From positions 37-64,036 of the forward strand of contig DATFQY010000191.1 in the NCBI GenBank assembly GCA_035263845.1: a stretch of DNA of 64,000 bases, written 5' to 3'. Position numbers and translations under genes: made by a program. This DNA is from Thermoanaerobaculia bacterium. Its GTDB lineage: Bacteria; Acidobacteriota; Thermoanaerobaculia; UBA5066; Gp7-AA6. The notes beneath the pieces were generated by a model. It was given only the letters and a program-made list of their open reading frames with translations. It had not been told where the DNA came from and ran no database searches. This document shows, one piece after another, positions 8,031 to 56,853 of the stretch (the stretch's first letter is position 1; every line of letters starts with the position of its first letter).

Positions 8031-8570
8031 TCACCAGTCCTTGTAGTAGGTGCCGTCGATGGCCCGCAGGTCAGAGAGGGAGAAGACGTCGTAGACGTTC
8101 TGGCCACCCCAGGACAGCGTGTCCGGTTCGTCCTGGAAGGACCTCATTCCCCACTCGTCCTTCTTGGTCATGGGGTCGGTCGGAACCCGCCGGAGAAACT
8201 TCTGCTTCTTGTCGAGCTGGCCAACGAGCGTGACCCCCTCGACCAGGGTCTTCAAGTCGGGCGGGTAGCCTTCCGAGCCGATCTTGACGGGGATCAGGCC
8301 GAGGTCGGAGTACTGCTTGTACTTGTCGATGGCGTCCCGCATCAGGCGGAGCTGGTAGCGCAGCTCCAGTTCGTCCTGGCGTTTGACGGTGTACCGCGCG
8401 ATCGGGACCGCCATGGAGGCGAGGATCGCCACCATCGCCGCGACCACGGCGAGCTCGACGATCGTGAACCCGGATTCGTGAGCCGTGAACCGTGAGCCGT
8501 GAGCCGCGATTGCGGCGACACGCTCCCTCCACGGCTCACGGCTAACGGCTAACGGCTTACGGATCGTCAC
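8031..8570 (-). CDS. GspG-like pseudopilin, second paralog, with an unusually long N-terminal leader
   Basis: ESGFTIVELAVVAAMVAILA plus VPTDP. The only in-frame start is a GTG overlapping the secretin stop, so the first roughly 30 codons are encoded by the palindromic heptamer element. Confidence 0.6.
   Translation of the reverse strand: MTIRKPLAVSREPWRERVAAIAAHGSRFTAHESGFTIVELAVVAAMVAILASMAVPIARYTVKRQDELELRYQLRLMRDAIDKYKQYSDLGLIPVKIGSEGYPPDLKTLVEGVTLVGQLDKKQKFLRRVPTDPMTKKDEWGMRSFQDEPDTLSWGGQNVYDVFSLSDLRAIDGTYYKDW
8477..8566 (-). repeat. Palindromic heptamer-array element, copy 1 (CCGTAAG x4 / loop / CGGCTCA x4)
   Basis: Read directly: four tandem 7-mers on each arm, with the arms complementary. 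It is near-identical apart from the loop to the copy at 25018..25108. Confidence 0.6.
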
Positions 8571-18649: not shown

Positions 18650-19966
18650 ATGTTTCTCTACCGAATCCTGTCGGTCCTGGCGCTGCTGGCCTACTCCCCG
18701 GTCGCCCTTTTCCGGTCGATGACCGGGCGGAAGAAAATGGGGGACGTCCGGGGCAAGCTGGGGCTGCTCCCCTACCCCGATCTGGACGGCGGAATCTGGG
18801 TCCACGCAGTCTCGGTCGGCGAGGTCGGGGTGGCGCGCAACCTGTTGACCGCGCTCTCGAAGCGGGCGCCGGCGGGCACGCGGCTCGGGCTGTCCGCGAC
18901 GACTGTCGCCGGCCTGGAAACGGCCCGCCGCACGTCGGTGGATCGCTGGCCGGTCTTCTCGTTCCCGCTCGACCTCGCGGGTCCGGTCGAGAAGGCCCTG
19001 GCGGCCGTCCGGCCGGGCCTCGTCGTCCTGACGGAGACGGAACTCTGGCCGCTCCTGATCGACCGGGCTGTCCGGCGAGGAGCCGGCGTCGCCCTGGTCA
19101 ACGGGAGGATTTCGGACCGGTCGCTGCGCCGTTACCGGCTCGTGCGGCGGTGGTTCGCACGGAGCCTGGAGCGGATTTCCCTCTTCGCGATGCAAAGCGA
19201 GGAGGACTCGAGGCGCATCCGGGAGCTTGGGGCGCCGGCGGACCGCGTCCTCGTAACCGGCAACGTCAAGTACGACCTCGCGCCGGCTCCCCCCTTCGCG
19301 GACGCCGCCCGGCTTTCGTCTCTCGCGGCCGGCCGGCCGGTCCTCGTCGCGGCTTCGACCGGGCCGGGCGAAGAAGCGATCGTGCTGGACGCCTGGAAGG
19401 GTTTGGAGTCGCGCACCGTGCTCGCGATCGCCCCGCGCCGCCCCGAGCGGTTCGAAGAGGTCGCCCGGCTGGTCGAATCGAAAGGCTTCGCGGTGATCCG
19501 CCGCTCGGACCCCGGCGCGCTCTCAAATCACAAATCACAAATCCCAAATCACAAATCTTCGGTCTACGTTCTCGATACGGTCGGAGAGCTCGCTTCGCTG
19601 TACGGCGAGGCGGCGATCGCCTTCATCGGGGGGAGCCTGATCCCCACCGGCGGCCACAATCCGATCGAGGCCTGGGCGCAAGGAGTCGCCGTCCTCGTCG
19701 GCCCGCACACTCAGAGTTTTCGCGAGATCACCGAGGCGGGCGAGAAGCAGGGAGTCCTCCACCGAGTGGCCGGGGGCGAGGAGCTCGCGAGGGCGTTCGA
19801 GGCCGCCGCCGCCGACCCCGAGGCCGCCGCCGCGCGAGGCGCCGCCGCTCGCGCGTTCGTCGCGAAGAGCCGGGGAGCGGCCGAGGCGACCGCGGAGGCC
19901 ATCGTCAAGCTCCTGCCCGCCGAGCCGGTTCCCGCCAAAGAGAAGTCGCGAGCTGCGCTCCCGTGA
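18650..19966 (+). CDS. waaA: 3-deoxy-D-manno-octulosonic acid transferase
   Basis: KdtA-like over its full length (VSVGEV..., LDTVGEL...GGSL...GGHNP). Carries an in-frame heptamer-repeat segment. Confidence 0.85.
   Translation: MFLYRILSVLALLAYSPVALFRSMTGRKKMGDVRGKLGLLPYPDLDGGIWVHAVSVGEVGVARNLLTALSKRAPAGTRLGLSATTVAGLETARRTSVDRWPVFSFPLDLAGPVEKALAAVRPGLVVLTETELWPLLIDRAVRRGAGVALVNGRISDRSLRRYRLVRRWFARSLERISLFAMQSEEDSRRIRELGAPADRVLVTGNVKYDLAPAPPFADAARLSSLAAGRPVLVAASTGPGEEAIVLDAWKGLESRTVLAIAPRRPERFEEVARLVESKGFAVIRRSDPGALSNHKSQIPNHKSSVYVLDTVGELASLYGEAAIAFIGGSLIPTGGHNPIEAWAQGVAVLVGPHTQSFREITEAGEKQGVLHRVAGGEELARAFEAAAADPEAAAARGAAARAFVAKSRGAAEATAEAIVKLLPAEPVPAKEKSRAALP
19524..19560 (-). repeat. GAAGA-(TTTGTGA)4 element, in-frame inside kdtA in reverse orientation
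   Basis: aaatcacaaatcacaaatcccaaatcacaaatcttc encodes SNHKSQIPNHKS. Confidence 0.6.
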
Positions 19967-20988
19967 TCTCCAGGCTCTACGCGAAGCTTCTCGAAGCCCG
20001 GGCCCGCCGCTACGCGTCGGGGAGGACCCCTTCGCATCGCCTGGACCAGCCGGTCATCTCGGTCGGCAACATCACGATGGGCGGGACCGGCAAGACACCC
20101 TTCGTCGCGCACCTGGCGCGCCGGCTCCGGTTCGAGGGAAAGCGTCCCGCCATCCTCTCGCGCGGCTACGGACGGACCTCGCGCGGCGTGATCCTCGTCT
20201 CCGAGGGGCACGGCCCGCTCGTCAAACCCGACGTGGGCGGAGACGAGCCGGTGGCGCTGGCGATGCGGCTGCCGGGAGTCATCGTGGCAGTCGGAGAGAA
20301 GCGGATCGAGGCGGCCCGAGCGGCGGTGGCCGCCGGGGCCGACGTCCTCATCCTCGACGACGGCTACCAGCACCTCTCCCTCGAGAGGGACGCGAACCTG
20401 CTGCTGCTCGACGCGAAGGACCCCTTCGGCGGCGGACGGTTTCCGCCGCGGGGGCGCTTGCGCGAGCCGCTCTCTGCCCTCGCGCGCGCCGACGCGTTCG
20501 TTTTCACGCGGGCCGAGTCGGACACTCCCTCCGCGGAGGCGCTGGCGACAGTCCGAAAGTGGAATCCTTCCGCGCCGGTCTTCACGGCGCGCTTCAAGCC
20601 CGCGGGGCTCTACGACGACAGCGGCGCGCCGGTCGAGGGAGCGGTCCTCGAGGAGCGCCGGTGCCTCGCGGTCTGCGGAATCGCGCAGCCGGAGGGGTTC
20701 GCCGCGACTCTCCTGGAGCTCAACATCTCGGCCGAGCAGATCCTGGCCTTTCGCGACCACCAACGCTACAAAGCGCGGGACCTCGCCCGGATCGAGAGAG
20801 CGGCGCGGGCGACCGGCGCCTCGTGGATCGTCACGACGGAGAAGGACGCCGTCAAGCTCGGCGGGTCTCTTTCACTCCCGACGGTGACGGTGCGCCTGAG
20901 TGGCGAGGTCGGCGAGCCGGGATTCTTTCCGTTTCTCGCCTCGCGCATCTCCAGCCCCTCCCGGACTGCCGCCCGGGCGGGGAGATGA
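19963..20988 (+). CDS. lpxK: Tetraacyldisaccharide 4'-kinase
   Basis: P-loop ISVGNITMGGTGKTP. GTG start overlaps the kdtA stop. Confidence 0.8.
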   Translation: MISRLYAKLLEARARRYASGRTPSHRLDQPVISVGNITMGGTGKTPFVAHLARRLRFEGKRPAILSRGYGRTSRGVILVSEGHGPLVKPDVGGDEPVALAMRLPGVIVAVGEKRIEAARAAVAAGADVLILDDGYQHLSLERDANLLLLDAKDPFGGGRFPPRGRLREPLSALARADAFVFTRAESDTPSAEALATVRKWNPSAPVFTARFKPAGLYDDSGAPVEGAVLEERRCLAVCGIAQPEGFAATLLELNISAEQILAFRDHQRYKARDLARIERAARATGASWIVTTEKDAVKLGGSLSLPTVTVRLSGEVGEPGFFPFLASRISSPSRTAARAGR

Positions 20989-21902
20989 GCGCGGAGGCGG
21001 GAGAGGGGGTCGGGCTGCGGCACCGGCTCGAGCACGCGCTCGTGCGCGGAGCGCTGGCGGCCCTGAAGGTTCTGCCGGCGGGAGCCGCGACGGGATTCGG
21101 GAGGGGCGCGGCGAAAGTGTTCTTCGGGTTCGCGCCGTCCCGGCGGGGCATCCTCCGGAGGAACATCGACGCCGCGTTTCCCGAGAAGTCGGCCGCCGAG
21201 AAGAAGGCGATCGGGAAGGCGAGTGTCGAGAACCTGGGCGCCGCCTTCATGGAGTTCCTCGGGTCCTCGGAGCTTTCGCGGGAAGACATCCTGGCGCGCG
21301 TGGAGCTCGAAGGAGAGGAGAACTTCGCCGCCGCCCGGCGCCGCGGCAAGGGAGTCTTCCTCCTCTCCGCACACTTCGGCAGCTGGGAGCTCGGAGCGAT
21401 CCGGGCGGGATTGATCGCCGACCCGATCTCCTCGGTCGTGAGGCCGCTCGACAACCCGCTCCTCGAAGAGGAGCTGGAGTTTCGCCGGACCCGGCTGGGC
21501 AACCGCGTCATCCGCAAGCGGCAGGCGGCCCGCGAGATCCTCAAGGCGCTGCGGGCGAAAGAGACCGTCGCGATCCTGGTGGACCAGAACGTGATTCCCG
21601 AGGAGGCGATCTTCGTCCCGTTCTTCGGCCGGGCGGCCGCGACGACGCCCTCCCTCGCGCTCCTGCAATTGAAGACGGACGCCGCGGTCGTGCCGGTCTA
21701 CACGTGGCCGCTCGGCGGAGGCCGATACCGCTTGAGGTTCGAAAAGCCGATCCTGGCGGAGGAATTCGCCGGCGAGGGGGAGCGCGAGGAGCGGGTCCGG
21801 GCCGCGACCGCGCGCTACATGGCGGTGACCGAGGAGGCCATCCGCGGCGATCCCGGCGCCTGGCTGTGGATGCACAACCGCTGGAGAACGCGGCCCGCCT
21901 GA
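20985..21902 (+). CDS. Lipid A biosynthesis (Kdo)2-lipid IVA acyltransferase (LpxL/HtrB family)
   Basis: LPLAT-superfamily acyltransferase (HFGSWE). ATGA overlap with lpxK. Confidence 0.7.
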   Translation: MSAEAGEGVGLRHRLEHALVRGALAALKVLPAGAATGFGRGAAKVFFGFAPSRRGILRRNIDAAFPEKSAAEKKAIGKASVENLGAAFMEFLGSSELSREDILARVELEGEENFAAARRRGKGVFLLSAHFGSWELGAIRAGLIADPISSVVRPLDNPLLEEELEFRRTRLGNRVIRKRQAAREILKALRAKETVAILVDQNVIPEEAIFVPFFGRAAATTPSLALLQLKTDAAVVPVYTWPLGGGRYRLRFEKPILAEEFAGEGEREERVRAATARYMAVTEEAIRGDPGAWLWMHNRWRTRPA

Positions 21903-22897
21903 TGGGTAAAGGACGGGTCGTCGTCGCGCCAAACTGGCTCGGAGACTGCGTGATGGCCCTTCCCCTCCTCCGCGCGATCCGGACCGCGCATCCGGAGGAC
22001 CTGCTGGCGGTCCTGGCCAGGCCCGGCGCCGCCTCGATCTTTCGCGCCGAAGGGAGCGCGGGCTCGGTCCTGGAGCGCGGCTCCCTTCTCGACGACGCCC
22101 GGTCGCTGCGGCGCGGCCGGTTCGCGGAGGCGTGGCTCCTTCCGAATTCCTTCCGATCGGCCGTGGCCCCTTTCCTCGCGCGGGTCCCCGAGAGGATCGG
22201 CTATGCGACCGACCGCCGCGGCGCCCTCCTGACTCGGTCCCTGGAGAAGCCGGACCGGACGGCCCACCAGCTTCGCGACTACGACGATCTGCTCCGCTCG
22301 CGCGGGATCGAGCCGGACCTCGGGCCGCCTCGGCTTCCGATCCCGCCGGCGGCGGCACAGAGAGCGCGCGAGGCGCTCGAGCGCGCCGGGATCTCCGCCG
22401 AGAAGCCGCTCGCGCTCCTGTGCCTGGGCGCGGCCTTCGGGTGGACGAAGCGCTGGCCGCCGGAGAGGTTCGGCGCCCTTTCCGGCCGGCTCGCCGGGCG
22501 CGGATACGCCTGCGCCGCGGTGATCGGCCCGGGAGAGGAAGATCTCGCGGCGAAGGCGTCCGCCGCGGCAAAGTCGCCGCTTCCAGTGCTCGGGCGCGAC
22601 CTCGATCCGATCGGCCTCGCCGCGCTGCTGGCCCGCGCCCGCCTCGCGGTCGCCAACGACTCGGGGCCCGCGCACCTCGCCGCCGCGGTGGGAACTCCGG
22701 TCGTCGCGCTCTTCGGCCCGACGGACCCTGGCCGGACTTCCCCTTCCGGCGCCCCGGTGGAAGTCCTCGACCGCTTCGTCTTCTGCTCGCCCTGTTTTTT
22801 GAAGGAGTGCCCCTACGGGCACGAGTGCCTTCGCGAGATCACGGTCGAGATGGTGCTGGCGGCGGCGGAGCGGCTCCCGGGCTCGACGGATCGGTGA
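21902..22897 (+). CDS. ADP-heptose:LPS heptosyltransferase (GT9, WaaF-like)
   Basis: GT9 signature (VVAPNWLGDCVMALP...NDSGPAHLAAAVGTP). Confidence 0.7.
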   Translation: MGKGRVVVAPNWLGDCVMALPLLRAIRTAHPEDLLAVLARPGAASIFRAEGSAGSVLERGSLLDDARSLRRGRFAEAWLLPNSFRSAVAPFLARVPERIGYATDRRGALLTRSLEKPDRTAHQLRDYDDLLRSRGIEPDLGPPRLPIPPAAAQRAREALERAGISAEKPLALLCLGAAFGWTKRWPPERFGALSGRLAGRGYACAAVIGPGEEDLAAKASAAAKSPLPVLGRDLDPIGLAALLARARLAVANDSGPAHLAAAVGTPVVALFGPTDPGRTSPSGAPVEVLDRFVFCSPCFLKECPYGHECLREITVEMVLAAAERLPGSTDR

Positions 22898-23479
22898 CTA
22901 TCGCAGCTCGGAATTCCAGTAAGCGACGTCGAGGAAGTTCCGCCAGGCCGGGTGGACCTTGTTCGAGCCGAAGTGGCCGACCGGATGCCAGCGGGGCTTC
23001 TTGGGCTGGCTGATCAGCCTCATCGAGGCCTCGTGCGGGCTGCGGTTGCCCTTCTTGACGTTGCAGGCCAGGCACGCGCACACGACGTTCTCCCAGTTGG
23101 ACCGCCCGCCCCGCGACAACGGGATGACGTGGTCGAGCGACAGGTCCGAGGAAGAGAACTTGTGCCCGCAGTACTGGCAGCGGTTCCCGTCGCGCAGGTA
23201 AATGTTGTGCCGCGAGAACTTCACGTCCTGCCTCGGCAGCCGGTCGAACTCCTTCAGCACGATGACGCGCGGAACGCGGATCGCCATCGAGGGCGTCAGG
23301 ACGACCTCGTCCTGCGGCTGCACGGGGATGTCGCACCAGTTCTCGAACTCGTAGGTCGAGTAGTCCGGCAGGACGGCGCGGACGTGCCCCTTGTAGAAGA
23401 GCGAGAACGCCTTCCGGACCGAAGTGACCTGAATCGCCTGAAATACGCGATTCAAAACGAGCACATGAGTATCCAGCAT
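22898..23479 (-). CDS. HNH endonuclease (McrA-like)
   Basis: CQYCGHKF...LDHVIPLSRGG...NWENVVCACLACNVKKGN. Confidence 0.7.
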   Translation of the reverse strand: MLDTHVLVLNRVFQAIQVTSVRKAFSLFYKGHVRAVLPDYSTYEFENWCDIPVQPQDEVVLTPSMAIRVPRVIVLKEFDRLPRQDVKFSRHNIYLRDGNRCQYCGHKFSSSDLSLDHVIPLSRGGRSNWENVVCACLACNVKKGNRSPHEASMRLISQPKKPRWHPVGHFGSNKVHPAWRNFLDVAYWNSELR

Positions 23480-23532
23480 GCGACTTTCTCGAAGGCGGCA
23501 ATTATAGTCAAAGGAGTGAGGAAGGTCAGGTC

Positions 23533-24555
23533 TTGACGCCACGCGTGCCGCGGAAACGGCTGCTTTCCGTCATCGACGGCTTCGCCGGGAGGCGCCTCGT
23601 CGTGGCCGGAGACTACGTCCTCGACCGGTTCCTCTACGGGCATCCCAAGCGCGTCAGCCGCGAGGCACCGGTCCTGATCCTCCGGTTCTGGAAGGAGGAG
23701 CACCTGCCCGGCGGCGCCGGAAACACCGCGGCCAACGTCCGGTCGCTCGGGGGCGTCCCGATCCCCGTCGGGGCGGTGGGAAAGGACGACGCCGGCGCGA
23801 GACTGCGGGAAGCGCTGGCCGGACGCGGGATCGACACCGACGGACTGCTGGCGGCACCGGACTACGGGACCCCGACGAAGACGAGGATCCTCGCGGGAGC
23901 TCCGCACGGGATCAAGCAGCAGGTCGTCCGCTACGACCGCGAGTCGAATCTCCCGGAAGACTCCGCGCTCGCCGCGAGGATCGCCGACGCGCTCGAAAGG
24001 AGCGCCGCCGGAGCCGACGCGGCGGTCCTCTCGGACTACGGTTACGGCGCGGTCCCGAAGGACGCGAACGCAATCCTGCGCGGGAGCCTTCCCTCCGGCG
24101 CGCCGATCCTGGTGGATTCGCGCCACGGTCTGACCGGCTTCGCGGGCGCGGACGCGCTGACGCCCAACGAGGAAGAGCTCGAGGAGTGGATCGGCAAGCC
24201 GCTCGGCGACTCCGCCGAGGAGCTTGAGAGCGCCGCGCGCTCGCTCCAGAAGGCCGTGGCCGCCCGGATCGTCCTCGTCACCCGCGGCTCGCGGGGGATG
24301 GCGCTCTTCCAGGATGGCGCCTCGCCAGTCTCGATCCCGGTCCACGGGACCGACCAGGTCGCCGACGTCACCGGGGCCGGGGACACGGTGCTCGCGACCT
24401 TCTCGCTCGCGCTCGCCTCCGGAGCCTCGCCGCTCGAGGCCGCGCTGCTGGCCAACTTCGCCGGCGGCGTGGTCGTCATGAAGATGGGGACGGCGACGAT
24501 CACCCCGGAGGAGCTCCGAGACGCGGTCGGTTCGGATCGAACGATCCTCGAATGA
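23533..24555 (+). CDS. hldA: D-glycero-beta-D-manno-heptose-7-phosphate kinase (HldE domain I / HldA)
   Basis: PfkB carbohydrate kinase (TGAGDT). Sits next to the adenylyltransferase half. Confidence 0.8.
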   Translation: MTPRVPRKRLLSVIDGFAGRRLVVAGDYVLDRFLYGHPKRVSREAPVLILRFWKEEHLPGGAGNTAANVRSLGGVPIPVGAVGKDDAGARLREALAGRGIDTDGLLAAPDYGTPTKTRILAGAPHGIKQQVVRYDRESNLPEDSALAARIADALERSAAGADAAVLSDYGYGAVPKDANAILRGSLPSGAPILVDSRHGLTGFAGADALTPNEEELEEWIGKPLGDSAEELESAARSLQKAVAARIVLVTRGSRGMALFQDGASPVSIPVHGTDQVADVTGAGDTVLATFSLALASGASPLEAALLANFAGGVVVMKMGTATITPEELRDAVGSDRTILE

Positions 24556-25034
24556 CGGGAGGCCTCTCGAAGATCCTCTCCCGCGAGGAGCTTCTCGAAG
24601 CGGCGAAGCGCCAGGGCGCCGCGGGCCGCTCGATCGTGTTCGCCAACGGCGCGTTCGACCTGCTCCACGTGGGCCACGTCCGCTACCTCGAGGCGGCGCG
24701 CCGCGAGGGGGACTGGCTCGTGGTCGGCGTCAACTCCGACCGGTCGGTCCGCGCGTCCAAGGGGGACGGCCGCCCGATCCTGCCGGAGTCCGAGCGGTCG
24801 GAGGTCGTCGCTGCCCTCCGGTGCGTGGACGCCGTCGTGATCTTCGACGAGGACTCTCCGGCGGAGCTGATCGCGGCGCTGCGCCCGGCGGTCCACGCCA
24901 AGGGCACCGACTACACTTCCGAGTCGGTTCCCGAGCGCTCGGTCGTCGCCTCTTACGGGGGCCGAACTGTGATCGTCGGGGACCCGAAGGACCACGCCAC
25001 GACCGACCTGATCGAACGGATCCGTAAGCCGTAA
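24552..25034 (+). CDS. hldC: D-glycero-beta-D-manno-heptose-1-phosphate adenylyltransferase (HldE domain II / HldC)
   Basis: Cytidylyltransferase HxGH motif (GAFDLLHVGHVRYL). ATGA overlap with the kinase gene. Confidence 0.8.
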   Translation: MTGGLSKILSREELLEAAKRQGAAGRSIVFANGAFDLLHVGHVRYLEAARREGDWLVVGVNSDRSVRASKGDGRPILPESERSEVVAALRCVDAVVIFDEDSPAELIAALRPAVHAKGTDYTSESVPERSVVASYGGRTVIVGDPKDHATTDLIERIRKP

Positions 25035-25108
25035 GCCGTCAGCCGTCAGCCGAAGCCATGCTTGATACTGGGACTCCGGCTCACCGCTCACGGCTCACGG
25101 CTCACGCG
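25018..25108 (+). repeat. Palindromic heptamer-array element, copy 2
   Basis: ccgtaagccgtaagccgtcagccgtcagccg / 25-nt loop / cggctcaccgctcacggctcacggctcacg. It contains the hldC stop and ends 2 nt before the waaC-like ATG. Confidence 0.6.
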
Positions 25109-25110
25109 TC

Positions 25111-26100
25111 ATGAGGATCCTGATCGTCCGCCTCTCGTCGCTGGGCGACATCATCCACACGCTCCCGCTGGCGCTGAACGCGCACATGGGCGGCGCCCGG
25201 GTCGCGTGGCTGACGGAGCGCGGATACCGGGGGCTGCTCGAAGGAAACCCGTGCATCGAGCGGCTCTTCCTCGCCGACACGAGGCGATGGCGCGCCAACC
25301 TCGCTTCGATCTCACACTGGAAGGCGGTGGTGGAGCTGCGCCGCGGGCTGAAAGAGTTCGACCCCGAGGTGACTCTCGATCCGCAGGGGCTCTGGAAGTC
25401 GGCCCTCCTGGCGAAGCTGGCGGGCTGTCCCGTGGTTGGGTTCTCCGCGGGGTCCCGCCGGGAGCCCTCCTCCGCCGTGCTCGCCGCGACGGGCGTGGAC
25501 ATCGCGCCGGAGGCGGAGCACGTCGTGGACCAGAACCTTTCCCTGCTCGCCCCGCTGGGAATCCCGGTCGCTCGCCGAGCCCCGGATGCCCGCTACCTTC
25601 TGGAGCCGGAAGACTCCCGGGCCGCCGCCTTCCTCCGGACACTGCCGACTCCCTTCGCGCTCTACCATCCCGGCTCGGCCCGCTCGACGAAATCCTGGGG
25701 GGAGCGCAACTACGCCCAGCTCGCCGAGCAGCTGCACAAGAAGCTCGGGCTCTACCCGGCGATCTCCTGGGGGCCGGGAGACGAGCGTCGCGCCGAGCGG
25801 CTCGGGAGACTCCTCCCCTACTCCGCGAAGATCCCCGCGGTCCATTTTCGCGGCCTCGCCCAGGTCCTCTCGCGCGCGAGCCTGTTCGTCGCGGGCGACA
25901 CCGGGCCGGTCCACCTCGCAGACGCGATCGGCGTCCCGGCGCTGGCGCTCTTCGGCCCCGACGCGTACAAGCGCAACCTGCCCGAGCGCAACCGGCCGTA
26001 CCGGGGCGCCGCCTTGAGTTACGATCAGGCGGCGTCGGTCGAAACCGTCGCGCGCAAGGCCGTGGAGCTCGTCGAGAACGCCGGAACGATCGAGGGGTGA
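25111..26100 (+). CDS. ADP-heptose:LPS heptosyltransferase I (GT9, WaaC-like)
   Basis: MRILIVRLSSLGDIIHTLP...GDTGPVHLADAIGVP. Confidence 0.7.
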   Translation: MRILIVRLSSLGDIIHTLPLALNAHMGGARVAWLTERGYRGLLEGNPCIERLFLADTRRWRANLASISHWKAVVELRRGLKEFDPEVTLDPQGLWKSALLAKLAGCPVVGFSAGSRREPSSAVLAATGVDIAPEAEHVVDQNLSLLAPLGIPVARRAPDARYLLEPEDSRAAAFLRTLPTPFALYHPGSARSTKSWGERNYAQLAEQLHKKLGLYPAISWGPGDERRAERLGRLLPYSAKIPAVHFRGLAQVLSRASLFVAGDTGPVHLADAIGVPALALFGPDAYKRNLPERNRPYRGAALSYDQAASVETVARKAVELVENAGTIEG

Positions 26101-26807
26101 GGACGCTTTCCCTGGCGCTCCTTCTGATCGCCGCGTCTCCCGCCGAACAGGACAAGCCCGAGCCGCCCTCGTTCCTCGGCGAAAAGCTGCGCTTCGCCAT
26201 GTCCATCCTCGGGGTGGCCGGAGGAGAGCTGACGCTGTCGGCGGCGCCGGCAGAGCTCTCGGGCAAGCCGGCCTGGAAGTTCGAGATGTCGGTCGTCTCC
26301 AACGACTTCCTCTCCAAGTTCTACCTGGTGCGGGACACGATCGTGTCGTGGATCGATCCGACCTCCTTCCGCTCGCTGCGGTACGAGAAGCACTCCGTCG
26401 AAGGCAAGCGCGTCCGCGACGAGCTGACCGAGTTCGATTACGAGAAGGGAGTCGCGGTCCTCGACGGGACGCCGCTGTCGCTCGACCAGGCGACGCTCGA
26501 CACGCTCTCCTCCGTCTACTACCTGCGGACGCTCGCCCTCGACGCGGGAAAGCCTCCGTCGCTTCACGTCTTCTCGGGCAAGCCGCACGTGCTCGACGTC
26601 GAGGTCCAGGCCAGAGAAACGATCGAGGTGCCCGCCGGAAAGTTCCAGACCATCCGCGTCGAGCCCAAGAGCGCCGGCAGCAGCCTCGTCGGCAAGAACC
26701 TCATCCTCTGGCTGACGGACGACGCGAGGAAGATCCCGGTTCAGCTTCGATCGAAACTCAAGGTCGGCACACTTGTCGGGAGGTTGAAGTCGATCGAAAC
26801 AAAATGA
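26097..26807 (+). CDS. DUF3108-like secreted protein
   Basis: Signal peptide; GTG start overlaps the upstream stop. Position after heptose genes fits where this family is commonly found. Confidence 0.5.
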   Translation: MRTLSLALLLIAASPAEQDKPEPPSFLGEKLRFAMSILGVAGGELTLSAAPAELSGKPAWKFEMSVVSNDFLSKFYLVRDTIVSWIDPTSFRSLRYEKHSVEGKRVRDELTEFDYEKGVAVLDGTPLSLDQATLDTLSSVYYLRTLALDAGKPPSLHVFSGKPHVLDVEVQARETIEVPAGKFQTIRVEPKSAGSSLVGKNLILWLTDDARKIPVQLRSKLKVGTLVGRLKSIETK

Positions 26808-26885
26808 GCAGTTTGTGATTTGTGATTTGTGATTTGTGAACAGGGCGGAAAGGCCGACTTCTTGCCCTGATCAGAAATCACCAAT
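26808..26885 (+). repeat. (TTTGTGA)4-ACAGGGCGGAAAGGCCGA hairpin module, right after a stop codon
   Basis: Read directly. The heptamer run places TGA in all three frames. The downstream GAAATCACCAATCCCTCAC is partly complementary to it. Confidence 0.6.
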
Positions 26886-26915
26886 CCCTCACTGGGGTAC
26901 AATCCTTCACCATCC

Positions 26916-28760
<1,845 letters not shown>

Positions 28761-28762
28761 GC

Positions 28763-28836
28763 GGTGGGTGTTAGGTCCTAGGTGGTAGGAAAGCCCCGCT
28801 TCCGGGCCTACCACCTACCACTTGCCACCTAACACC
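28763..28836 (+). repeat. Heptamer-array palindrome (GGTGGGT GTTAGGT CCTAGGT GGTAGGA / loop / CCTACCA CCTACCA CTTGCCA CCTAACA)
   Basis: Read directly. Lies between the pilB stop and the pilT start. Confidence 0.5.
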
Positions 28837-28907
28837 TTGCGGGTAAACCGGTAGGCTTTCCTTTCGGCCGGCGAGCGGCTAAACTAACGCACTTCCCTAA
28901 GGGACCG

Positions 28908-30029
28908 ATGCCCAGCGATACGACACTCCACCAGCTCCTCAAGCAGATGGTCGAAATGGGGGCCTCCGACCTCCACCTGACGACCAACTCGCCACCGATG
29001 GTCCGGCTGGACGGGCGGCTCATTCCGCTTCCGTACCCGCCTCTGACGGTGTCGGAAACCAAACACCTCGCGTACTCGGTTTTGACAGACAGCCAGAAGC
29101 ACCGCTTCGAGGAGACGCTGGAGCTGGACTTCTCCTTCGGCGTCAAGGGGCTCGCCCGGTTCCGCGCCAACAATTTCAACCAGCGCGGAGCGGTCGCCGG
29201 CGTCTACAGGCAGATCCCCTATCAGATCCTCGGCTTCCGCGAGCTGGGGCTGCCGCCGATCGTCGAGACCCTCTGCGACAAGCCGCGAGGCCTGATCCTC
29301 GTCACGGGCCCCACCGGCTCGGGCAAGACGACGTCGCTCGCCGCGATGCTCGACAAGGTCAACGTCGAGAAGCAGCTCCACATCGTCACCATCGAGGACC
29401 CCATCGAGTTCCTCCACGGGCACAAGAAGTGCCTCGTCAACCAGCGCGAGCTCCACGCCGACACGCACTCCTTCCCCAACGCGCTGCGGGCCTGCCTGCG
29501 CGAGGACCCCGACGTCGTCCTCATCGGCGAGATGCGCGACCTGGAAACCATCGAGTCGGCCCTGCGCATCGCCGAGACCGGCCACCTCACGCTCGCGACC
29601 CTGCACACCAACTCCGCGATCTCCTCGATCAACCGGATCATCGACGTGTTCCCCGCGCACCAGCAGACGCAGATCCGCACACAGCTCTCCTTCGTGCTCG
29701 AGGGGATCCTCTGCCAGTCCCTCCTCGAGAGGGCGAGCGGCAAGGGCCGCATCATGGCGATGGAAGTCCTGGTCCCCAACGCCGCCATCCGCAACCTGAT
29801 CCGCGAGGACAAGGTCCACCAGATCTACTCGATGATGCAGACGGGCCAGTCGAAGTTCGGGATGCAGACTTTCAACCAGTCGCTGGCGACGCTCTACCAC
29901 CGCAAGCTGATCACGCTGGAGACGGCGCTGTCTCGCTCCTCCAATCCCGACGAGCTGCAGGAGCTGATCGGGCGCGGGGCAGGGCTGAACGTCGCCGCGC
30001 CGCCGGCCGTGGCCGGCAGGCGCGTTTAA
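28908..30029 (+). CDS. pilT: Twitching motility ATPase PilT
   Basis: 373 aa, GPTGSGKTTSLAAM, PilT-specific C-terminus. Confidence 0.88.
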   Translation: MPSDTTLHQLLKQMVEMGASDLHLTTNSPPMVRLDGRLIPLPYPPLTVSETKHLAYSVLTDSQKHRFEETLELDFSFGVKGLARFRANNFNQRGAVAGVYRQIPYQILGFRELGLPPIVETLCDKPRGLILVTGPTGSGKTTSLAAMLDKVNVEKQLHIVTIEDPIEFLHGHKKCLVNQRELHADTHSFPNALRACLREDPDVVLIGEMRDLETIESALRIAETGHLTLATLHTNSAISSINRIIDVFPAHQQTQIRTQLSFVLEGILCQSLLERASGKGRIMAMEVLVPNAAIRNLIREDKVHQIYSMMQTGQSKFGMQTFNQSLATLYHRKLITLETALSRSSNPDELQELIGRGAGLNVAAPPAVAGRRV

Positions 30030-30041
30030 GGAAGTCCCGCC

Positions 30042-31244
30042 GTGCCGAGCTACGCCTGGAAAGGGCGCAACCGCGCTGGCCTGGTCAAGGAAGGCGTCCT
30101 CGCCGCCGACTCCAAGGAAGTCGCGCTGGCGTCGCTGCGGCGCCAGAACATCGTCGTCACCGGCATCCGGGAGCGCGGCAAGGAGATCTCCCTCACCAAG
30201 GTCGGCCGCAAGGTCCCGCCCAAGACGCTCGCGGTTTTCACCCGGCAGTTCTCCGTCATGATCGACGCGGGCCTGCCGCTGGTCCAGTGCATCGAGATCC
30301 TCGCGAACCAGCAGGAGCACAAGAATTTCCAGAAGATCCTGCTCCAGGTCCGGCAGGACGTCGAGGCCGGCTCGACGCTGGCCGACGCGATGCGCCGGCA
30401 CCCGAAGGCCTTCGACGCGCTTTACGTCAACATGGTCGCGGCGGGCGAGGCGGGCGGTATCCTCGACACGATCCTCCAGCGCCTCTCCGTCTACATCGAG
30501 AAGGCCGTCAAGCTGAAGTCCCAGGTCCGGTCGGCGCTGATCTACCCGGTCGCCGTCATCGTCATCGCGGCCATCGTCGTCGCGGTCATCCTGCTCAAGG
30601 TCATCCCGACCTTCGCCGCCCTGTTCACGAGCCTCGGGGCGGAGCTGCCGCTGCCGACGCGCGTGGTCATCGCGATGTCGAACTTCCTGGCGCGGTACTT
30701 CATCTTCTTCGTCATCGGCGTCGCGGCCGGCGTCTACGGCATCCGGCGGTACTACGCGACCTACCGTGGGCGCCGCGTCATCGACGGGCTGCTCCTGAAG
30801 CTCCCGGTCCTCGGGATGATCCTGCGCAAGGTCGCCGTCGCCCGCTTCTGCCGCACGCTCGCGACGCTGACCTCCTCGGGCGTGCCGATCCTGGAGAGCC
30901 TCGACATCACGGCCCGCACCGCCGGCAACGCCATCGTCGAGGACGCCATCTACGAGACCCGTAAGAGCGTCGAGGGAGGCAAGACGATCGTCGAGCCCCT
31001 CCGCGCCACCAACATCTTCCCGAACATGGTCGTCCAGATGATCGGGGTCGGCGAGCAGACCGGCGCGCTCGACGCCATGCTCAACAAGATCGCGGACTTC
31101 TACGAGGACGAGGTGGACGCCGCGGTGTCCGGCCTGGTCAAGCTGCTCGAGCCGATCCTGATCTTCATCCTCGGCATCGTCATCGGCGGAATCGTCATCG
31201 CCATGTACCTGCCGATGTTCACCCTGATCAACAAGATCGGCTGA
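30042..31244 (+). CDS. pilC: Type IV pilus platform protein PilC
   Basis: 400 aa GspF/PilC family. Confidence 0.85.
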   Translation: MPSYAWKGRNRAGLVKEGVLAADSKEVALASLRRQNIVVTGIRERGKEISLTKVGRKVPPKTLAVFTRQFSVMIDAGLPLVQCIEILANQQEHKNFQKILLQVRQDVEAGSTLADAMRRHPKAFDALYVNMVAAGEAGGILDTILQRLSVYIEKAVKLKSQVRSALIYPVAVIVIAAIVVAVILLKVIPTFAALFTSLGAELPLPTRVVIAMSNFLARYFIFFVIGVAAGVYGIRRYYATYRGRRVIDGLLLKLPVLGMILRKVAVARFCRTLATLTSSGVPILESLDITARTAGNAIVEDAIYETRKSVEGGKTIVEPLRATNIFPNMVVQMIGVGEQTGALDAMLNKIADFYEDEVDAAVSGLVKLLEPILIFILGIVIGGIVIAMYLPMFTLINKIG

Positions 31245-31250
31245 GGGTCT

Positions 31251-32942
31251 TTGCGCCCCGAAACCCGCACGCCGGCATCTCCCCGGTCGTTGAACCTGCT
31301 CACGGCGATCCGGCTCGCCGTGCTGCTCGTCATCCTCGTCTCGGCCTTCCTGCTCCACACGAGCTCGGCCGGCGACCTCCCGCTGACGTTCCTGTACTTC
31401 CTCCTCGGATTGAACGCCGCCGCCCTGACGCTGGGGATCTTCCAGTGGACGATGGGCCGGTCGCTGCCTCACACCGTCTGCGCGTACCTCCAGTCGCTCG
31501 GGGACATCGTCCTGGTGACGCTCCTGGTTTACGCCTCCGGCGGACCGTACTCCGTCTTCAACTTTCTCTACCTGGTGGTCATCGGGGTCTCCGCGGTCCT
31601 CCTCGTGCGGCCGGGTTCGCTCGTCATCGCGACGGCGGCCGCGCTCTCCTACGGCGCGGTCGTGGAGCTGCTCGCCAAGGGGGTGCTCCCGGCACCGCCC
31701 GTCACACCCGTATCGGACTGGACGGGAAGCCAGGTCCGCTACAACTTCGCGATCTCGGTCGTGGGGTTCTACGGCGTGGCGTTCATGGCGGGGTACCTCT
31801 CCGAGAAGCTCCGCGCGACGAGGACCGAGCTCGGCCGCCGGCAGAAAGCCCTCCAGAAGCTCCAGAACCTCCACGGCAACGTCATCGCGACGATGGCCTC
31901 GGGCCTGCTGACGACGGACTCGCATCAGCGCATCACCTTCGTCAATCCGGCGGGGGGCGCGCTGCTGGGCGTGGACCCGGCGCACGCGGCGGGGATGTTC
32001 CTCCAGGACTTCGATTTCGAAATGCCCGAGAACTGGGCGACGATCTGGGACGGCGACAGCACCTGGGACAGTTTTCGCGGAGAGATCGAGATCAACCGCA
32101 AGACGTCCCGGCGCGTCATCGGCTACTCGCTGCGCGGGCTGGTGGACGCCGACCGAGAGATGGGGCTGCTCATCCTCTTCCAGGACCTGACCGAGATCAA
32201 GAAGCTCCAGCGGCGCGCCCGCTTCAACGAGCAGCTCGCCGCGGTCGGGGAGCTCGCCGCCGGCATCGCCCACGAGATCCGCAACCCGCTGGCGTCCATC
32301 TCGGGCTCGGTCCAGGTGCTCTCCAACGAGTTGACCGTCGGCTCCGCCGAGAGGCGGCTGATGGAGATCATCGTGTCCGAGTCCAAGCGCCTCTCCAAGA
32401 TCCTCGAGGACTTCCTGCGCTTCGTGCGCCCGCAGGAGCGGCGGGTCGCGGACTTCGACGTGGCCAACTGCGTCTCCGAGGTGATGGACCTCTTCCGGCT
32501 CTCCGACGAAGTCTCCGATTCCCACCGCATCGAGGCAGTCGTCGAGCCGCCGCACTCGACGCTATCGGGCGACCGGGACCAGGTCCGGCAGATCATCTAC
32601 AACATCGCCAAGAACGCGGTTCGCGCGATGGCCGCGGGCGGCACGCTCACGGTCCTGGGACGAGAGCAGGAAGGCTGGTATAGCATCCGCTTCATCGATA
32701 CAGGCCGAGGCATGAGCGAGGAAGAGCTGAGCCGTCTCTTCACCCCGTTCTCCACGGCGTTCGACGGCGGGACGGGGCTCGGGATGGCCATCGTCCGGAA
32801 GATCGTGGAGGACCATGGAGGCACGATCGAGGCGGACTCGACCCCAGGGGAGGGGACCACGGTGACGGTGCTTCTGCCGCGCAACCCGGTCCCGCGCGAG
32901 GCGACACCGGCCAGGACATCCTTCCAGGAGGCGGCCCTGTGA
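31251..32942 (+). CDS. pilS: Sensor histidine kinase (PilS-like)
   Basis: Six TM segments, a PAS domain, HisKA (GIAHEIRNPL) and HATPase_c. TTG start. Confidence 0.75.
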   Translation: MRPETRTPASPRSLNLLTAIRLAVLLVILVSAFLLHTSSAGDLPLTFLYFLLGLNAAALTLGIFQWTMGRSLPHTVCAYLQSLGDIVLVTLLVYASGGPYSVFNFLYLVVIGVSAVLLVRPGSLVIATAAALSYGAVVELLAKGVLPAPPVTPVSDWTGSQVRYNFAISVVGFYGVAFMAGYLSEKLRATRTELGRRQKALQKLQNLHGNVIATMASGLLTTDSHQRITFVNPAGGALLGVDPAHAAGMFLQDFDFEMPENWATIWDGDSTWDSFRGEIEINRKTSRRVIGYSLRGLVDADREMGLLILFQDLTEIKKLQRRARFNEQLAAVGELAAGIAHEIRNPLASISGSVQVLSNELTVGSAERRLMEIIVSESKRLSKILEDFLRFVRPQERRVADFDVANCVSEVMDLFRLSDEVSDSHRIEAVVEPPHSTLSGDRDQVRQIIYNIAKNAVRAMAAGGTLTVLGREQEGWYSIRFIDTGRGMSEEELSRLFTPFSTAFDGGTGLGMAIVRKIVEDHGGTIEADSTPGEGTTVTVLLPRNPVPREATPARTSFQEAAL

Positions 32943-34381
32943 GCGGCGCGCGGCTCCTGATCGTGGACGACGAGGCGTCGATCCGCGACATGCTGGCCTT
33001 CTTTTTCCACAAGCGAGGCTTCGAGGTCCTGACCGCCTCGAACTACGCCGAGGGCTCGGCCTCCGCGCTGCGCTCCTCGCCCGACCTGATCCTCTGCGAC
33101 ATCAAGATGCCCGACGGCAACGGGCTGGACCTGCTCCGCAAGACCAAAGCCGAGAACCCCAAGACGCCGGTCATCATGATCACCGCGCACACATCCGCCA
33201 AGGACGCGATCGACGCGATGAAGGCCGGCGCCATCGACTACATCTCCAAGCCGTTCGACGTCGAGGAGCTGGGGCTGCTGGTGGACCGCGCGCTCGGCGA
33301 GAAGCAGCTCCAGGACGAGAACATCTACCTCAAGCAGGAGCTCGCGGCCAAGTACACCTTCGCCAACATCATCGGCAAGGGATCGCGGATGCAGGAGATC
33401 TTCCGCACGATCGAGAGGATCGGCCGGGTCTCCTCGACGGTCCTGCTGACGGGCGAGAGCGGGACGGGCAAGGAGCTCATCGCGCGGGCGATCCACTACA
33501 CGTCGATCCGCAAGGAGAAGAAGTTCGTCTCGATCAACTGCGGCGCTCTGCCGGAGACGCTGCTCGAGTCCGAGCTCTTCGGCCACGAGCGGGGAGCCTT
33601 CACCGGCGCGGTCAAGGAGAAGCGAGGCCTCTTCTCGGAGGCGGACGGCGGGACGCTGTTCCTGGACGAGATCTCCGAGACCACCCCGACGATGCAGGTC
33701 AAGCTCCTCCGGGCGATCCAGGAGAAGCTGATCCGGAAGGTCGGCGGCAACGAGGAAACCAGCGTGGACGTCCGCATCATCGCGGCGACCAACAAGGACT
33801 TGAACGACCTCGTCTCCTCGCAGCGCTTCCGCGAGGACCTCTTCTACCGGATCAACGTCATCCCGATCGCGCTGCCGCCGCTGCGCTCGCGCGTGGAGGA
33901 CATCGCCCCCCTGACGCAGCACTTCATCGGGATGATCTGCAAGGAGCAGAGGATCCCGGAGAAGAAAATCTCGACGGAGGCGATGCGGCTCCTCGAGGCG
34001 TACCCGTGGCCGGGCAACGTCCGGGAGCTCGAGAACACGCTGGAGCGGACGGTCGCCCTGGAGGGAGGACCGGTCATCACGGCGTCGAGCCTCCCCGAGG
34101 CGATCGCGCTCGGCGTGCGGACGCGCGTGCCCGACTTCGAGAGCCTTCCCGCCGAGGGGATCAACCTGGAGGCGTACCTCGAGGCGGTCGGCAAGCGGCT
34201 CATGCGCGAGGCGCTCGACCGCTGCGACGGGGTCCAGACGAAGGCCGCGGAGCTGCTGCGGATGTCCTTCCGCTCCTTCCGCTACTACGCCAAGAAGTAC
34301 AACCTGGTCCGGAAGGAAGACCTCTACGAGGACGAGTCCGCGACGCAGCCCGCCGAGCCCGCGGAGATGGAAGGAAACTGA
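32939..34381 (+). CDS. pilR: Sigma-54-dependent response regulator (PilR-like, NtrC family)
   Basis: REC domain, AAA+ sigma-54 activator (GESGTGKE, GAFTGA) and a C-terminal HTH. Confidence 0.85.
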   Translation: MSGARLLIVDDEASIRDMLAFFFHKRGFEVLTASNYAEGSASALRSSPDLILCDIKMPDGNGLDLLRKTKAENPKTPVIMITAHTSAKDAIDAMKAGAIDYISKPFDVEELGLLVDRALGEKQLQDENIYLKQELAAKYTFANIIGKGSRMQEIFRTIERIGRVSSTVLLTGESGTGKELIARAIHYTSIRKEKKFVSINCGALPETLLESELFGHERGAFTGAVKEKRGLFSEADGGTLFLDEISETTPTMQVKLLRAIQEKLIRKVGGNEETSVDVRIIAATNKDLNDLVSSQRFREDLFYRINVIPIALPPLRSRVEDIAPLTQHFIGMICKEQRIPEKKISTEAMRLLEAYPWPGNVRELENTLERTVALEGGPVITASSLPEAIALGVRTRVPDFESLPAEGINLEAYLEAVGKRLMREALDRCDGVQTKAAELLRMSFRSFRYYAKKYNLVRKEDLYEDESATQPAEPAEMEGN

Positions 34382-34845
34382 TCCGAATCCTCACCGTCTC
34401 GCTGGTCTTCGTCGCCGCCTGCGGCGCGGCACCCACGCCGGCGAAGCCGTCCCCCACGCCGGCCGCCGCCGCGGGCCCCAGGGTCGCGATGCCGTCGGGC
34501 GCCGTCTACAAGCTCGAGGTGGCGCGCACCCCCGAGGAACAGGCGCAGGGGCTGATGTTCCGCGAGAGCCTGCCTGAGCGCGGCGGGATGATCTTTCTCT
34601 TCAACGACAAGTCCTCTCACCGTTTCTGGATGAAGAACACGATGATCCCGCTCGACATGATCTGGATGGACGAGGCCGGGAAGGTCCTCTTCATCTCCCC
34701 CGACACGCCGCCTTGCAAGGCCGATCCCTGCGCGAGCTACGGCCCCGAGACTCCCGCCGCCCAGGTCCTGGAAATCGCCGGAGGGATGGCGGTCAAGGAA
34801 AAGATCGTCGTGGGGTCAGTCCTTCGCTTCGAGAACGTGAAGTGA
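34378..34845 (+). CDS. DUF192-family lipoprotein
   Basis: Lipobox LVFVAAC and conserved DUF192 core (LDMIW.D). No in-frame ATG; start is probably CTG or another non-ATG codon. Start uncertain. Confidence 0.5.
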   Translation: MIRILTVSLVFVAACGAAPTPAKPSPTPAAAAGPRVAMPSGAVYKLEVARTPEEQAQGLMFRESLPERGGMIFLFNDKSSHRFWMKNTMIPLDMIWMDEAGKVLFISPDTPPCKADPCASYGPETPAAQVLEIAGGMAVKEKIVVGSVLRFENVK

Positions 34846-34912
34846 AGAATCTGTGATTTGTGATTTTGTGATTTGTGAACAGGGCGGAAAGCCGATAGCG
34901 CGGCTGCCCTCA
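34846..34912 (+). repeat. GAAGAATC-(TGTGATTTGTGATTTTGTGATTTGTGA)-ACAGGGCGGAAAGCCGA hairpin module
   Basis: Read directly. Begins right after the DUF192 stop codon. Confidence 0.6.
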
Positions 34913-34937
34913 GTGGCCCGGTCAGGAACGATGGAGA

Positions 34938-37558: not shown

Positions 37559-37595
37559 TTTAGCAAGCCTTCTCTTCGGTTAGGATTCCCCGGCC

Positions 37596-38471: not shown

Positions 38472-38510
38472 AGAAGAATTTGTGATTTGTGAATTGTGAT
38501 CAGGGCCAAC
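38472..38510 (+). repeat. GAAGAAT-(TTGTGATTTGTGAATTGTGA)-TCAGGGCC element right after the galU stop
   Basis: Read directly. Confidence 0.55.
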
Positions 38511-38535
38511 CCGGTCTGGTCACGAGGTAGCCGTA

Positions 38536-45707: not shown

Positions 45708-45818
45708 GGGTCCAATGGACCTTGGACGAACCTTTGACCTTGGACTTGGGACTTTCGACACACTGGACCTTGGACTTTGGACGTGCGACCGACCTTGGAC
45801 CTTGGACCTTGGACCGTC
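45708..45818 (-). repeat. Degenerate (GGTCCAA)n / (CTTGGAC)n heptamer array, about 14 units
   Basis: Read directly. Lies between the tandem TGATGA stops of the permease and the lolA-like start. Confidence 0.55.
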
Positions 45819-55942: not shown

Positions 55943-55952
55943 GAAAGAGTTC

Positions 55953-56010
55953 CTTAGTCCTTGGTCCTTGGTCCCTGGTCGTGGTCGCCCCGACCAAGGA
56001 CGAAGGACAA
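55953..56010 (-). repeat. Heptamer-array palindrome (CTTAGTC CTTGGTC CTTGGTC CCTGGTC / GACCAAG GACGAAG GACAAGG GACTAAG)
   Basis: Read directly. Lies between the SDR stop and the permease start. Confidence 0.55.
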
Positions 56011-56025
56011 GGGACTAAGCACGCT

Positions 56026-56816: not shown

Positions 56817-56853
56817 CGTCAATCACAAATCACAAATCACAGATTCTTCCTCA
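56817..56853 (-). repeat. GGAAGAATC-(TGTGATTTGTGATTTGTGA) element right after the glutamine-synthetase-like stop
   Basis: Read directly. Confidence 0.6.

Follow-up and report, generated by a model that had tools for sequence, protein, structure and literature searches.

The heptamer arrays scattered over a 64,000-nucleotide stretch of an acidobacterial genome (Thermoanaerobaculia bacterium, contig DATFQY010000191.1, positions 37 to 64,036; hereafter the window) belong to a kind of repeat that has already been described, the heptameric simple sequence repeats (SSRs), here with a new unit, TTTGTGA, and a new host. Five arrays of this unit, (TTTGTGA)3-5 each, lie in the 64 kb. They are probably best understood as palindromic repeats that resemble the repetitive extragenic palindromes (REPs), with heptamer arms remodelled by slippage, and, jointly with this, as one unit family within a lineage-wide set of heptanucleotide tandem repeats rather than as a stand-alone module. 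This reading rests on the nearly exclusive use of a seven-nucleotide period, on a strong link to stop codons and gene orientation, on the turnover of units at orthologous sites and on the presence of one hairpin unit at unrelated loci.

TTTGTGA arrays in the window

All five arrays had been pointed out by a first-pass annotation made from the letters alone, and sequence inspection together with a pattern search found each of them in place: a two-unit TTTGTGA pattern with up to two mismatches matches 14 times in the window versus 0.05 expected. Tandem Repeats Finder assigns a period of 7 to all five sites, with 3.0-4.9 copies and 87-100% matches. The description of low-GC elements in high-GC DNA was equally sound, the unit having 29% GC and the window 64-73%. 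Genes beside the arrays were identified by Pfam, translations and database gene calls; copies 1 to 4 indeed lie past the TGA stop of a real gene and in the sense of that gene, with units that begin 4-7 nt after the stop. Copy 1 (26808..26839, plus strand) consists of the 4-nt spacer GCAG and (TTTGTGA)4, following the stop of a DUF3108 gene (26805-26807) and preceding a pilB-like gene. It continues into a loop and distal arm (26840..26884, plus strand) with the loop module AACAGGGCGGAAAGG, a CAGGGC (26841-46)/GCCCTG (26864-69) stem and an inverted partial arm, TCAGAAATCACCAA (26871-84). Copy 2 (34846..34913, plus strand) follows a DUF192 gene (stop 34843-45) with the 4-nt spacer AGAA, four units (34850-34878, one with a 1-nt insertion), the loop module AACAGGGCGGAAAG and a weaker hairpin; it faces a convergent BNR-repeat gene that ends at 34938. 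Copy 3 (38472..38524, plus strand) stands after galU, which encodes a GalU-type NTP transferase (stop 38469-71), and faces a convergent Zn-ribbon gene; its 7-nt spacer AGAAGAA is followed by three units (38479-38499), the last of which is used in a hairpin, GTGATCAGGGCC...GGTCTGGTCAC. Copy 4 (56817..56850, minus strand) is placed between a glutamine-synthetase-like gene (stop 56851-53) and an SDR gene (ATG at 56798), with the 7-nt spacer GGAAGAA, three units (56823-56843) and no distal arm in the window.

The fifth copy (19521..19560, minus strand) departs from the post-stop placement of the other four: its five or six units lie antisense and in frame inside waaA/kdtA (18650-19966, plus strand), where they encode LSNHKSQIPNHKSS in a variable loop. 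GAAGAAT, taken at first for a fixed element end, is instead a purine-rich spacer that varies from copy to copy. In relatives devoid of the array at the copy 2 site, a purine-rich start (AGA/AAG) likewise follows the stop, and the native stop is at the same residue. As had been noticed, two copies share a module: GTGAACAGGGCGGAAAG is exact in copies 1 and 2 (at 26836 and 34875), its only two exact occurrences in the window, and a search with up to three mismatches gave four matches, the tool's chance figure of 0.07 referring to that search.

A lineage-wide period-7 repeat system

A single array criterion for all periods (at least 14 lag matches, at most one mismatch) was applied to the window and seven related loci, about 197 kb in all. 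The window contains 10 period-7 arrays and none of periods 4-6 or 8-14, in agreement with Tandem Repeats Finder. The seven related loci contribute 36 more period-7 arrays, for a total of 46, and a single array was found across the eight sources for all periods from 4 to 14 except 7. Period 7 is therefore over-represented relative to the other unit lengths (46 versus 1).

The five additional window arrays are built of other units. All are intergenic, four of the five are inverted pairs, and most are at a stop or a few nucleotides from one. A (CGTGAGC)4/(ACGGCTN)5 hairpin (8473..8566, minus strand) lies directly past the stop (8567-69) of the upstream minus-strand gene and reads TAAGCCG TTAGCCG TTAGCCG TGAGCCG in sense. 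The same unit family forms a (CCGTAAG/CCGTCAG)4...(GCTCACG)4 hairpin (25022..25107, plus strand) that ends 3 nt before the ATG of a glycosyltransferase-9 gene. Between pilB and pilT, a hairpin (28758..28840, plus strand) combines a TAG-containing arm (TTAGGCG GTGGGTG TTAGGTC CTAGGTG GTAGG; unit TAGGTNN) with a CCTACCA arm. About 12 units of GGACCTT, in which there is no stop codon (TCCAAGG on the minus strand), follow a TGATGA stop (45725..45817, minus strand), and a (TCCTTGG)4/(CCAAGGA)4 hairpin (55951..56020, minus strand) stands after the stop of the SDR gene (56026-28).

Beyond this sample, a scan of genomes for 2.7 units of TTTGTGA found at least 120 loci; among the matches listed are Acidobacteriota, many Bacteroidota, Planctomycetota, Cyanobacteria, Desulfonema, candidate phyla radiation lineages and others. 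One-base variants of the unit (TTCGTGA, TTGGTGA, TTTGCGA, TTTGAGA) are often mixed within arrays. The form most often met in acidobacterial loci of high GC is (TTTGTGA)n followed by a loop and (TCACAAA)n; it often fills the spacer of convergent genes from stop to stop.

Arrays also touch annotated coding sequences in relatives. A (GATTTTG/GATTTTA)4...(AATCCAA)4 hairpin lies between pilR and a DUF192 gene (locus L125, 6234-6319), and the database call of the latter gene starts inside the distal arm, so that arrays may mislead start-codon calling. An (AAGGTCC)4.5 array lies within the C-terminal coding end of a lipid A acyltransferase gene, reaching its stop (locus L121, 13334-13365), and is a second case of an array tolerated in coding sequence. 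Four GalU homologues (P0186, P0197, P0200 and P0212) have 305-308 residues instead of the usual 289-292, i.e. 15-17 more; either a C terminus that reads on into an array behind the gene or an N terminus lengthened by another start call could account for this.

Placement and strand

Gene calls covering 133 kb of the related loci allowed 36 arrays to be located. Co-directional intergenic sequence (5.9 kb) holds 22 of them, convergent intergenic sequence (1.2 kb) five, divergent intergenic sequence (2.3 kb) two and coding sequence (124 kb) seven. There is a strong intergenic bias near the end of the upstream open reading frame (ORF), on the coding strand, with few arrays between divergent genes, as in the heptameric SSRs. 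Orientation was scored for the 40 arrays that lie between -21 and +15 nt from a stop codon whose gene shows a good coding signature. Their units have stop codons in sense only in 25 cases and in antisense only in one; where the native stop lies ahead of the array, these numbers are 20 and one. On the coding strand, G exceeds C in 33 of the 40 arrays and C exceeds G in three, the stop-adjacent arm being G/T-rich and C-poor. In an earlier screen of high-GC loci, a sense stop was present within 30 nt for 11 of 30 arrays and an antisense stop for none. The arrays are a dispersed repeat family with strong ties to stop codons and to the orientation of genes, as the first-pass annotation had suggested.

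Turnover between related genomes

Orthologous sites record both persistence and loss. Copy 4 is kept at the orthologous site of locus L064 (about 85% nucleotide identity) with four perfect units, a loop and an inverted arm; the (TCCTTGG)4/(CCAAGGA)4 hairpin, which is 800 nt from copy 4 in the window, is absent from the same locus. Copy 3 has a counterpart in L125, a degenerate one in each of L126 and L127, and none in L124 or L152; in the 94% GalU lineage, which likewise lacks copy 3, the spacer is 1-3 nt. Relatives have neither copy 1 nor copy 2 at the orthologous sites. Four genomes, that of the window and those of three relatives, retain a hairpin ahead of the glycosyltransferase-9 gene (25022), with CCGTAAG, GCGTCAG, GACGTGA and AACGTGA as units that have changed in both arms; most stems at this site carry one mismatch that recurs about once per unit. 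Of six relatives, four, L121, L125 and L127 among them, retain the pilB-pilT (GGTAGGT)n hairpin, and the intergenic regions that hold it fold, as a whole, at -60 to -76 kcal/mol. Both unit number and unit sequence vary at the same site between related genomes, as is characteristic of long SSRs.

Such turnover is also recorded at the site of copy 5. Most of the 120 closest WaaA homologues (60-100% identity) have period-7-encoded peptides at this loop, just before the VYLLD(S/T)(I/V)GEL motif, and about 10 of them have a short non-repeat linker only. The peptides include NHKSQITNHKS, IQNPKSKIQNP, IRNPKSEIRN, LNSQLSTLNS, LDSRLSTLDS, GLGTRDSGLGTRD, TRSPDRPITRS, IDNRQSSIVN and IHNSQSTIHN, and their back-translated units fit AATCACA, AATCCAA, AATCCGA, CTCAACT, CTCGACT and GGACTCG. 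Length differences of exactly 7 residues, the equivalent of three units, separate some of the homologues. As judged from the sequences, the pattern is that of a long-lived array under slippage and unit turnover with a reading-frame constraint. About ten unit families occur at this loop, and some of the homologues (P0001-P0120) have two adjacent arrays of different families, for instance GLGTRDSGL... followed by ...NHQSQITNHQS.

Copies of a hairpin unit at non-orthologous loci

A metagenome scan for the 18-mer loop junction TGTGAACAGGGCGGAAAG returned 23 matches, of which about 18 are chance matches in unrelated sequence and five are real. The real ones have four units and the loop AACAGGGCGGAAAGG, and most also have the ...CCTGATCACAAATCAC distal arm. 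The window and L136 each have two loci with four units and this loop, and L129 and L146 have one apiece, all of them non-orthologous. The genes that flank the real matches, which by eye we take to encode XseA, an FtsX-type permease and GcvT, have no counterpart in the window; the hairpin unit therefore appears to have been copied to non-orthologous sites in several contigs. Inverted arms exist, and arm length varies in whole units. The suggestion of a repeat resembling a miniature inverted-repeat transposable element (MITE) fares well here, as a REP/MITE-like reading fits a conserved-loop hairpin unit at non-orthologous loci. Comparisons with empty sites gave no clean ends or duplications, these sites being too diverged to define the ends of the element. 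The TTTGTGA elements have no GTAG-type end, and no transposase was recognised among the window ORFs examined.

Folding and search for known signals

The whole copy 1 element folds at -36.4 kcal/mol (z = -3.7), full inverted arms are found in L016, L030, L071, L116 and L122, and intergenic hairpins reach -43 to -76 kcal/mol. The elements are imperfect extragenic palindromes present in many copies in co-directional and convergent spacers, like REPs, bacterial interspersed mosaic elements (BIMEs) and REP doublets forming hairpins (REPINs).

The proposal that the arrays are terminators was not supported for a terminator of the classical kind. No U-tract follows the array hairpins (copies 1-3 inspected), and a terminator scan of 19100-39000 gave eight sites versus 10.4 expected, none at arrays; the absence of a U-tract and the chance level of terminator-like sites speak against a classical intrinsic terminator. 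Canonical promoters were likewise at chance level, with none at arrays. Neither was a small-RNA gene borne out as a known RNA family: an Rfam search of the window at gathering thresholds retrieved a selenocysteine tRNA (tRNA-Sec) and two other tRNAs only, and an E-value search of 26700-27000 retrieved only SNORA11 at E = 0.26, far below the gathering score. By eye, the TTTGTGA array does not fit the consensus of CRP half-sites or NusG pause motifs. Its GA|UUU agrees with the RNase E consensus RN|WUU, and start-stop mini-ORFs of the form UUG-UGA or period binding like that of HutP or TRAP are further conceivable readings.

Discussion

In its full form, the TTTGTGA element is proposed to be an imperfect palindrome directly past a stop, made of (TTTGTGA)n, a GC-rich loop and (TCACAAA)n, which would behave as a REP/BIME-type extragenic palindrome with microsatellite arms. 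Entire hairpin units would be copied to new intergenic sites, where replication slippage would change the number of units and single-base variants would sweep the array and both arms, before arrays decay or are lost. They would persist where little harm is done, in co-directional or convergent spacers or in frame in a tolerant protein loop, and in the orientation that puts the G/T-rich, C-poor arm first on the coding strand. This order of the arms automatically brings TGA into all three frames. The likely effect would be a stable stem-loop in the transcript that starts a few nucleotides past the stop, at the 3' end or between cistrons, and that may act as a barrier to RNA decay or as a weak terminator lacking a U-tract. 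The base of the stem would hold the upstream stop and the downstream start close together, and the C-free arm, being transcribed first, would load Rho poorly. Stops in all frames would be a by-product, possibly adding some tolerance, and not what the arrays exist for.

Several observations weigh against this proposal. A strain that is about 98% identical has an identical array with the same three units, so that slippage is not seen at short range. Copies 2, 3 and 4 fold no better than shuffled sequences (z = -0.57, -1.57 and +0.38), their distal arm being weak or missing in the window; the hairpin is therefore not constant in the TTTGTGA family. The analysis turned up neither a transposase nor a target-site duplication nor any other means of copying. 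In 26 intergenic regions, the sense and antisense strands fold equally well (mean difference -0.1 kcal/mol; energy lower in sense for 12 and higher for 10), a test with little power for an arrangement of inverted arms, and this equality gives no pointer to selection on RNA over selection on DNA. The orientation counts take in orthologous sites and are hence not independent, and the descriptions of the arrays as stop-rich and as G>C are confounded in the data set, since stop codons contain no C. Finally, published work on heptameric SSRs found no function for them (PMC4692102).

Among the alternatives, the one closest to the first-pass annotation, which had called the arrays a universal backstop, holds that they are selected for TGA in all frames in order to catch ribosomes that read through or shift frame at a leaky UGA, downstream stops being rare at 68% GC. 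Its arithmetic stands, three units placing TGA in every frame, and the sense bias is real (25 arrays versus one); moreover, TAA, TAG or TGA is found in the gene-proximal arm of other unit families too, and the variants TAAGCCG, TTAGCCG and TGAGCCG of the 8473-8566 hairpin all retain a stop at the cost of pairing. UGA is also decoded as selenocysteine at some sites in the source organism, given the tRNA-Sec gene of the window (49295-49392; two tRNA-Ala(GGC) genes, about 110 nt apart, are at 50905-50978 and 51091-51167). As the reason for the arrays, the backstop is nevertheless improbable, because the period-7 system includes stop-free units placed alike (GGACCTT at 45725 and GGGAAAC in L123), because GGGAATC of Xanthomonas, stop-free in every frame, is also found past stops on the coding strand, and because copy 5 is intragenic. 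Any stop-rich sequence would do, whereas one heptamer is reused; stop content cannot be told apart from poverty in C; and the same genes have no array in close relatives. The all-frame stops are more likely a by-product than a purpose. Poverty in C is central to another explanation, of similarly low probability, in which the elements are a Rho-linked punctuation of transcription that avoids polarity within operons or ends read-through and antisense transcripts. The stop-adjacent arm would be a poor loading site for Rho because it has no C, and the far arm (UCACAAA)n, with C and without G, resembles a good one that would be hidden in the hairpin of the sense transcript. The excess of G over C in the first arm of 33 of 40 arrays is consistent with this, as are the number of canonical intrinsic terminators (8 versus 10.4 expected, not above chance), convergent spacers filled from stop to stop (L016; L122 14378-14454) and the coding-strand position of the G-rich strand after stops in Xanthomonas and Nostoc. 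Yet the reasoning is entirely inferential, many elements lie inside evident operons (type II secretion system E/F, pilB-pilT and lipopolysaccharide core genes), and the skew of some unit families is neutral.

We regard as very unlikely that the arrays form a regulon of binding sites, either for an AT-preferring nucleoid-associated protein or for an RNA binder of the S1/Csp/CsrA type, as proposed for the TAACTGA repeats of Beggiatoaceae. Such binders have indeed been put forward for heptamer repeats, the same heptamer occurs at 120 loci or more in many phyla as an AT-rich island (here in 68% GC DNA), and perfect units are kept at an orthologous site whose flanks have diverged by about 15%. But the unit changes freely at fixed sites between relatives, which a sequence-specific binder would not tolerate; arrays are gained and lost between close relatives, neighbouring genes have no common function, and a 7-bp period shifts the sites off one face of the helix. 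The odds are equally poor for a classical MITE or REPIN, non-autonomous and moved by a transposase encoded elsewhere, with heptamer arrays as terminal inverted repeats. Conserved-loop hairpin units at non-orthologous loci of several contigs, differences in presence at orthologous sites and inverted arms speak for such an element. Against it, a target-site duplication is not definable, there is no gene for a transposase or a REP-associated tyrosine transposase (RAYT) in the window or beside the elements, loops are unrelated in most hairpins of the TTTGTGA family, arms change length in whole units and many arrays have a single arm. A bolder extension, less improbable than these alternatives though still doubtful, is that palindromic arrays with the G-rich arm first are a selected gene-end punctuation across phyla: a hairpin spanning from the stop to the next start or stop would insulate or couple cistrons, invisible to Rho and closed to read-through translation, would be kept by compensatory turnover of units in both arms, and would stem from a 7-nt-specific mechanism that makes the arrays, with the waaA loop as its fossil record.

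The closest described systems are the heptamer SSR arrays reported by Rehm et al. (2015), GGGAATC in Xanthomonas and GGGGAYT in Nostoc/Anabaena (PMC4692102). In Xanthomonas, GGGAATC is present at about 186 loci with a modal number of four units; 89-93% of the arrays are intergenic, with 70-75 convergent inverted pairs (PMC4692102). Most of these arrays are found 0-50 bp past a stop, on its coding strand, with divergent gene pairs under-represented as their setting; two Xanthomonas species have them between the same genes, with varying length and sequence (PMC4692102). Mrazek et al. (2007) noted the dominance of heptamers among long SSRs and suggested polymerase slippage as the cause. The TTTGTGA system resembles the Xanthomonas and Nostoc arrays in its 7-nt tandem units, about four per array, which occupy hundreds of intergenic loci, post-stop on the coding strand and G-rich in sense, in the convergent inverted pairs able to form stem-loops, in their rarity between divergent genes, in the persistence of arrays of variable length and sequence between the same genes in relatives, and in the lack of a tie to any functional class of genes. 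It differs by an AT-rich, stop-containing unit without G-quadruplex potential in a 68% GC genome, by its host phylum (Acidobacteriota), by several unrelated unit families side by side, and by the documented conserved-loop subfamily and in-frame waaA hot spot. As GGGAATC is stop-free in every frame, the shared placement rule is better put as "G-rich, C-poor strand in sense" than as "stops in sense".

Likeness to other repeats is more partial. The short tandemly repeated repetitive (STRR) heptamers of heterocystous cyanobacteria, such as CCCCAGT, TTGGTCA and CAACAGT, are similarly several families dispersed in one genome and mostly intergenic; to our knowledge, neither a post-stop, sense-strand rule nor a palindromic form is part of their definition. 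In marine Beggiatoaceae, TAACTGA direct repeats of 2-6 copies occupy about 170 intergenic loci (MacGregor 2015; PMC4679880). They are also found in Cyanobacteria and Bacteroidetes, with some copies inside ORFs, and mostly lie just upstream of start codons, overlapping the ribosome-binding site; a role in translation initiation was proposed for these repeats (PMC4679880). This stop-containing heptamer is thus intergenic and at times intragenic like TTTGTGA, but it precedes starts and has almost no inverted pairs, whereas the window copies are tied to the upstream stop and copies 2 and 3 face convergent genes. REP hairpins stabilise the upstream mRNA, and each REP arm is one conserved palindrome, 20-40 nt long, whose GTAG-type end RAYT transposases recognise. 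With REP, BIME and REPIN elements of Enterobacteria and Pseudomonas, the TTTGTGA elements share the imperfect palindrome, the many loci and a position near stops in co-directional or convergent spacers and not in promoter regions; unlike them, their arms are unit arrays of variable number, and no RAYT was found among the window ORFs examined. Rickettsia palindromic elements (RPEs) are mobile palindromes of 100-150 bp. Like copy 5 in waaA, they are in-frame repeats that add a peptide to a tolerant loop, but they are not tandem heptamers and have no sequence relationship with it.

In many bacteria, no class of long simple repeats is more over-represented than the heptameric SSRs. The lineage studied here offers an unusually clean case, with period 7 only and several unit families coexisting in one genome. 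Because the rule of orientation holds for different units, it favours, when taken with the Xanthomonas data, strand composition (G>C, with a C-free first arm) over stop codons as the common factor. The lineage further offers orthologous hairpins whose units have changed in both arms and a WaaA loop that records unit turnover across most of 120 homologues. On the practical side, arrays can lead gene callers astray over start sites and C-termini, and proteins can gain repeat peptides from them.

Other repeats and conserved motifs at these loci

A second repeat family, unrelated to the heptamer arrays, is formed by GC-rich REP-like palindromes that start with CCGTAGGGG(C/A)GGG... and have a GTAG-type end. 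An inverted pair of them (38531-38565, plus strand; 38655-38689, minus strand) lies downstream of copy 3, and several copies are present in the DUF192-BNR spacer of relatives (L125 6800-7150; L126 7050-7270). A -10-like GGTA(C/G)AAT motif, 12-15 nt upstream of the ATG of the pilB-like gene, is kept in three genomes (window 26890-26915; L123 18470-18498; L121 18505-18528). In the window, the copy 1 element is just upstream of it, over the position expected for a -35 hexamer; by eye, copy 1 provides no -35 element for the -10-like TACAAT before pilB. The 70 nt or so downstream of the pilB-pilT hairpin (…GGCTAAACTAA.G.ACTTCC.CTAA.GGGAC…) show conservation in every relative; they lie at 28841-28907 in the window and in the pilB-pilT spacers of L121, L123 and L125-L127, and could be the pilT promoter or 5' untranslated region.

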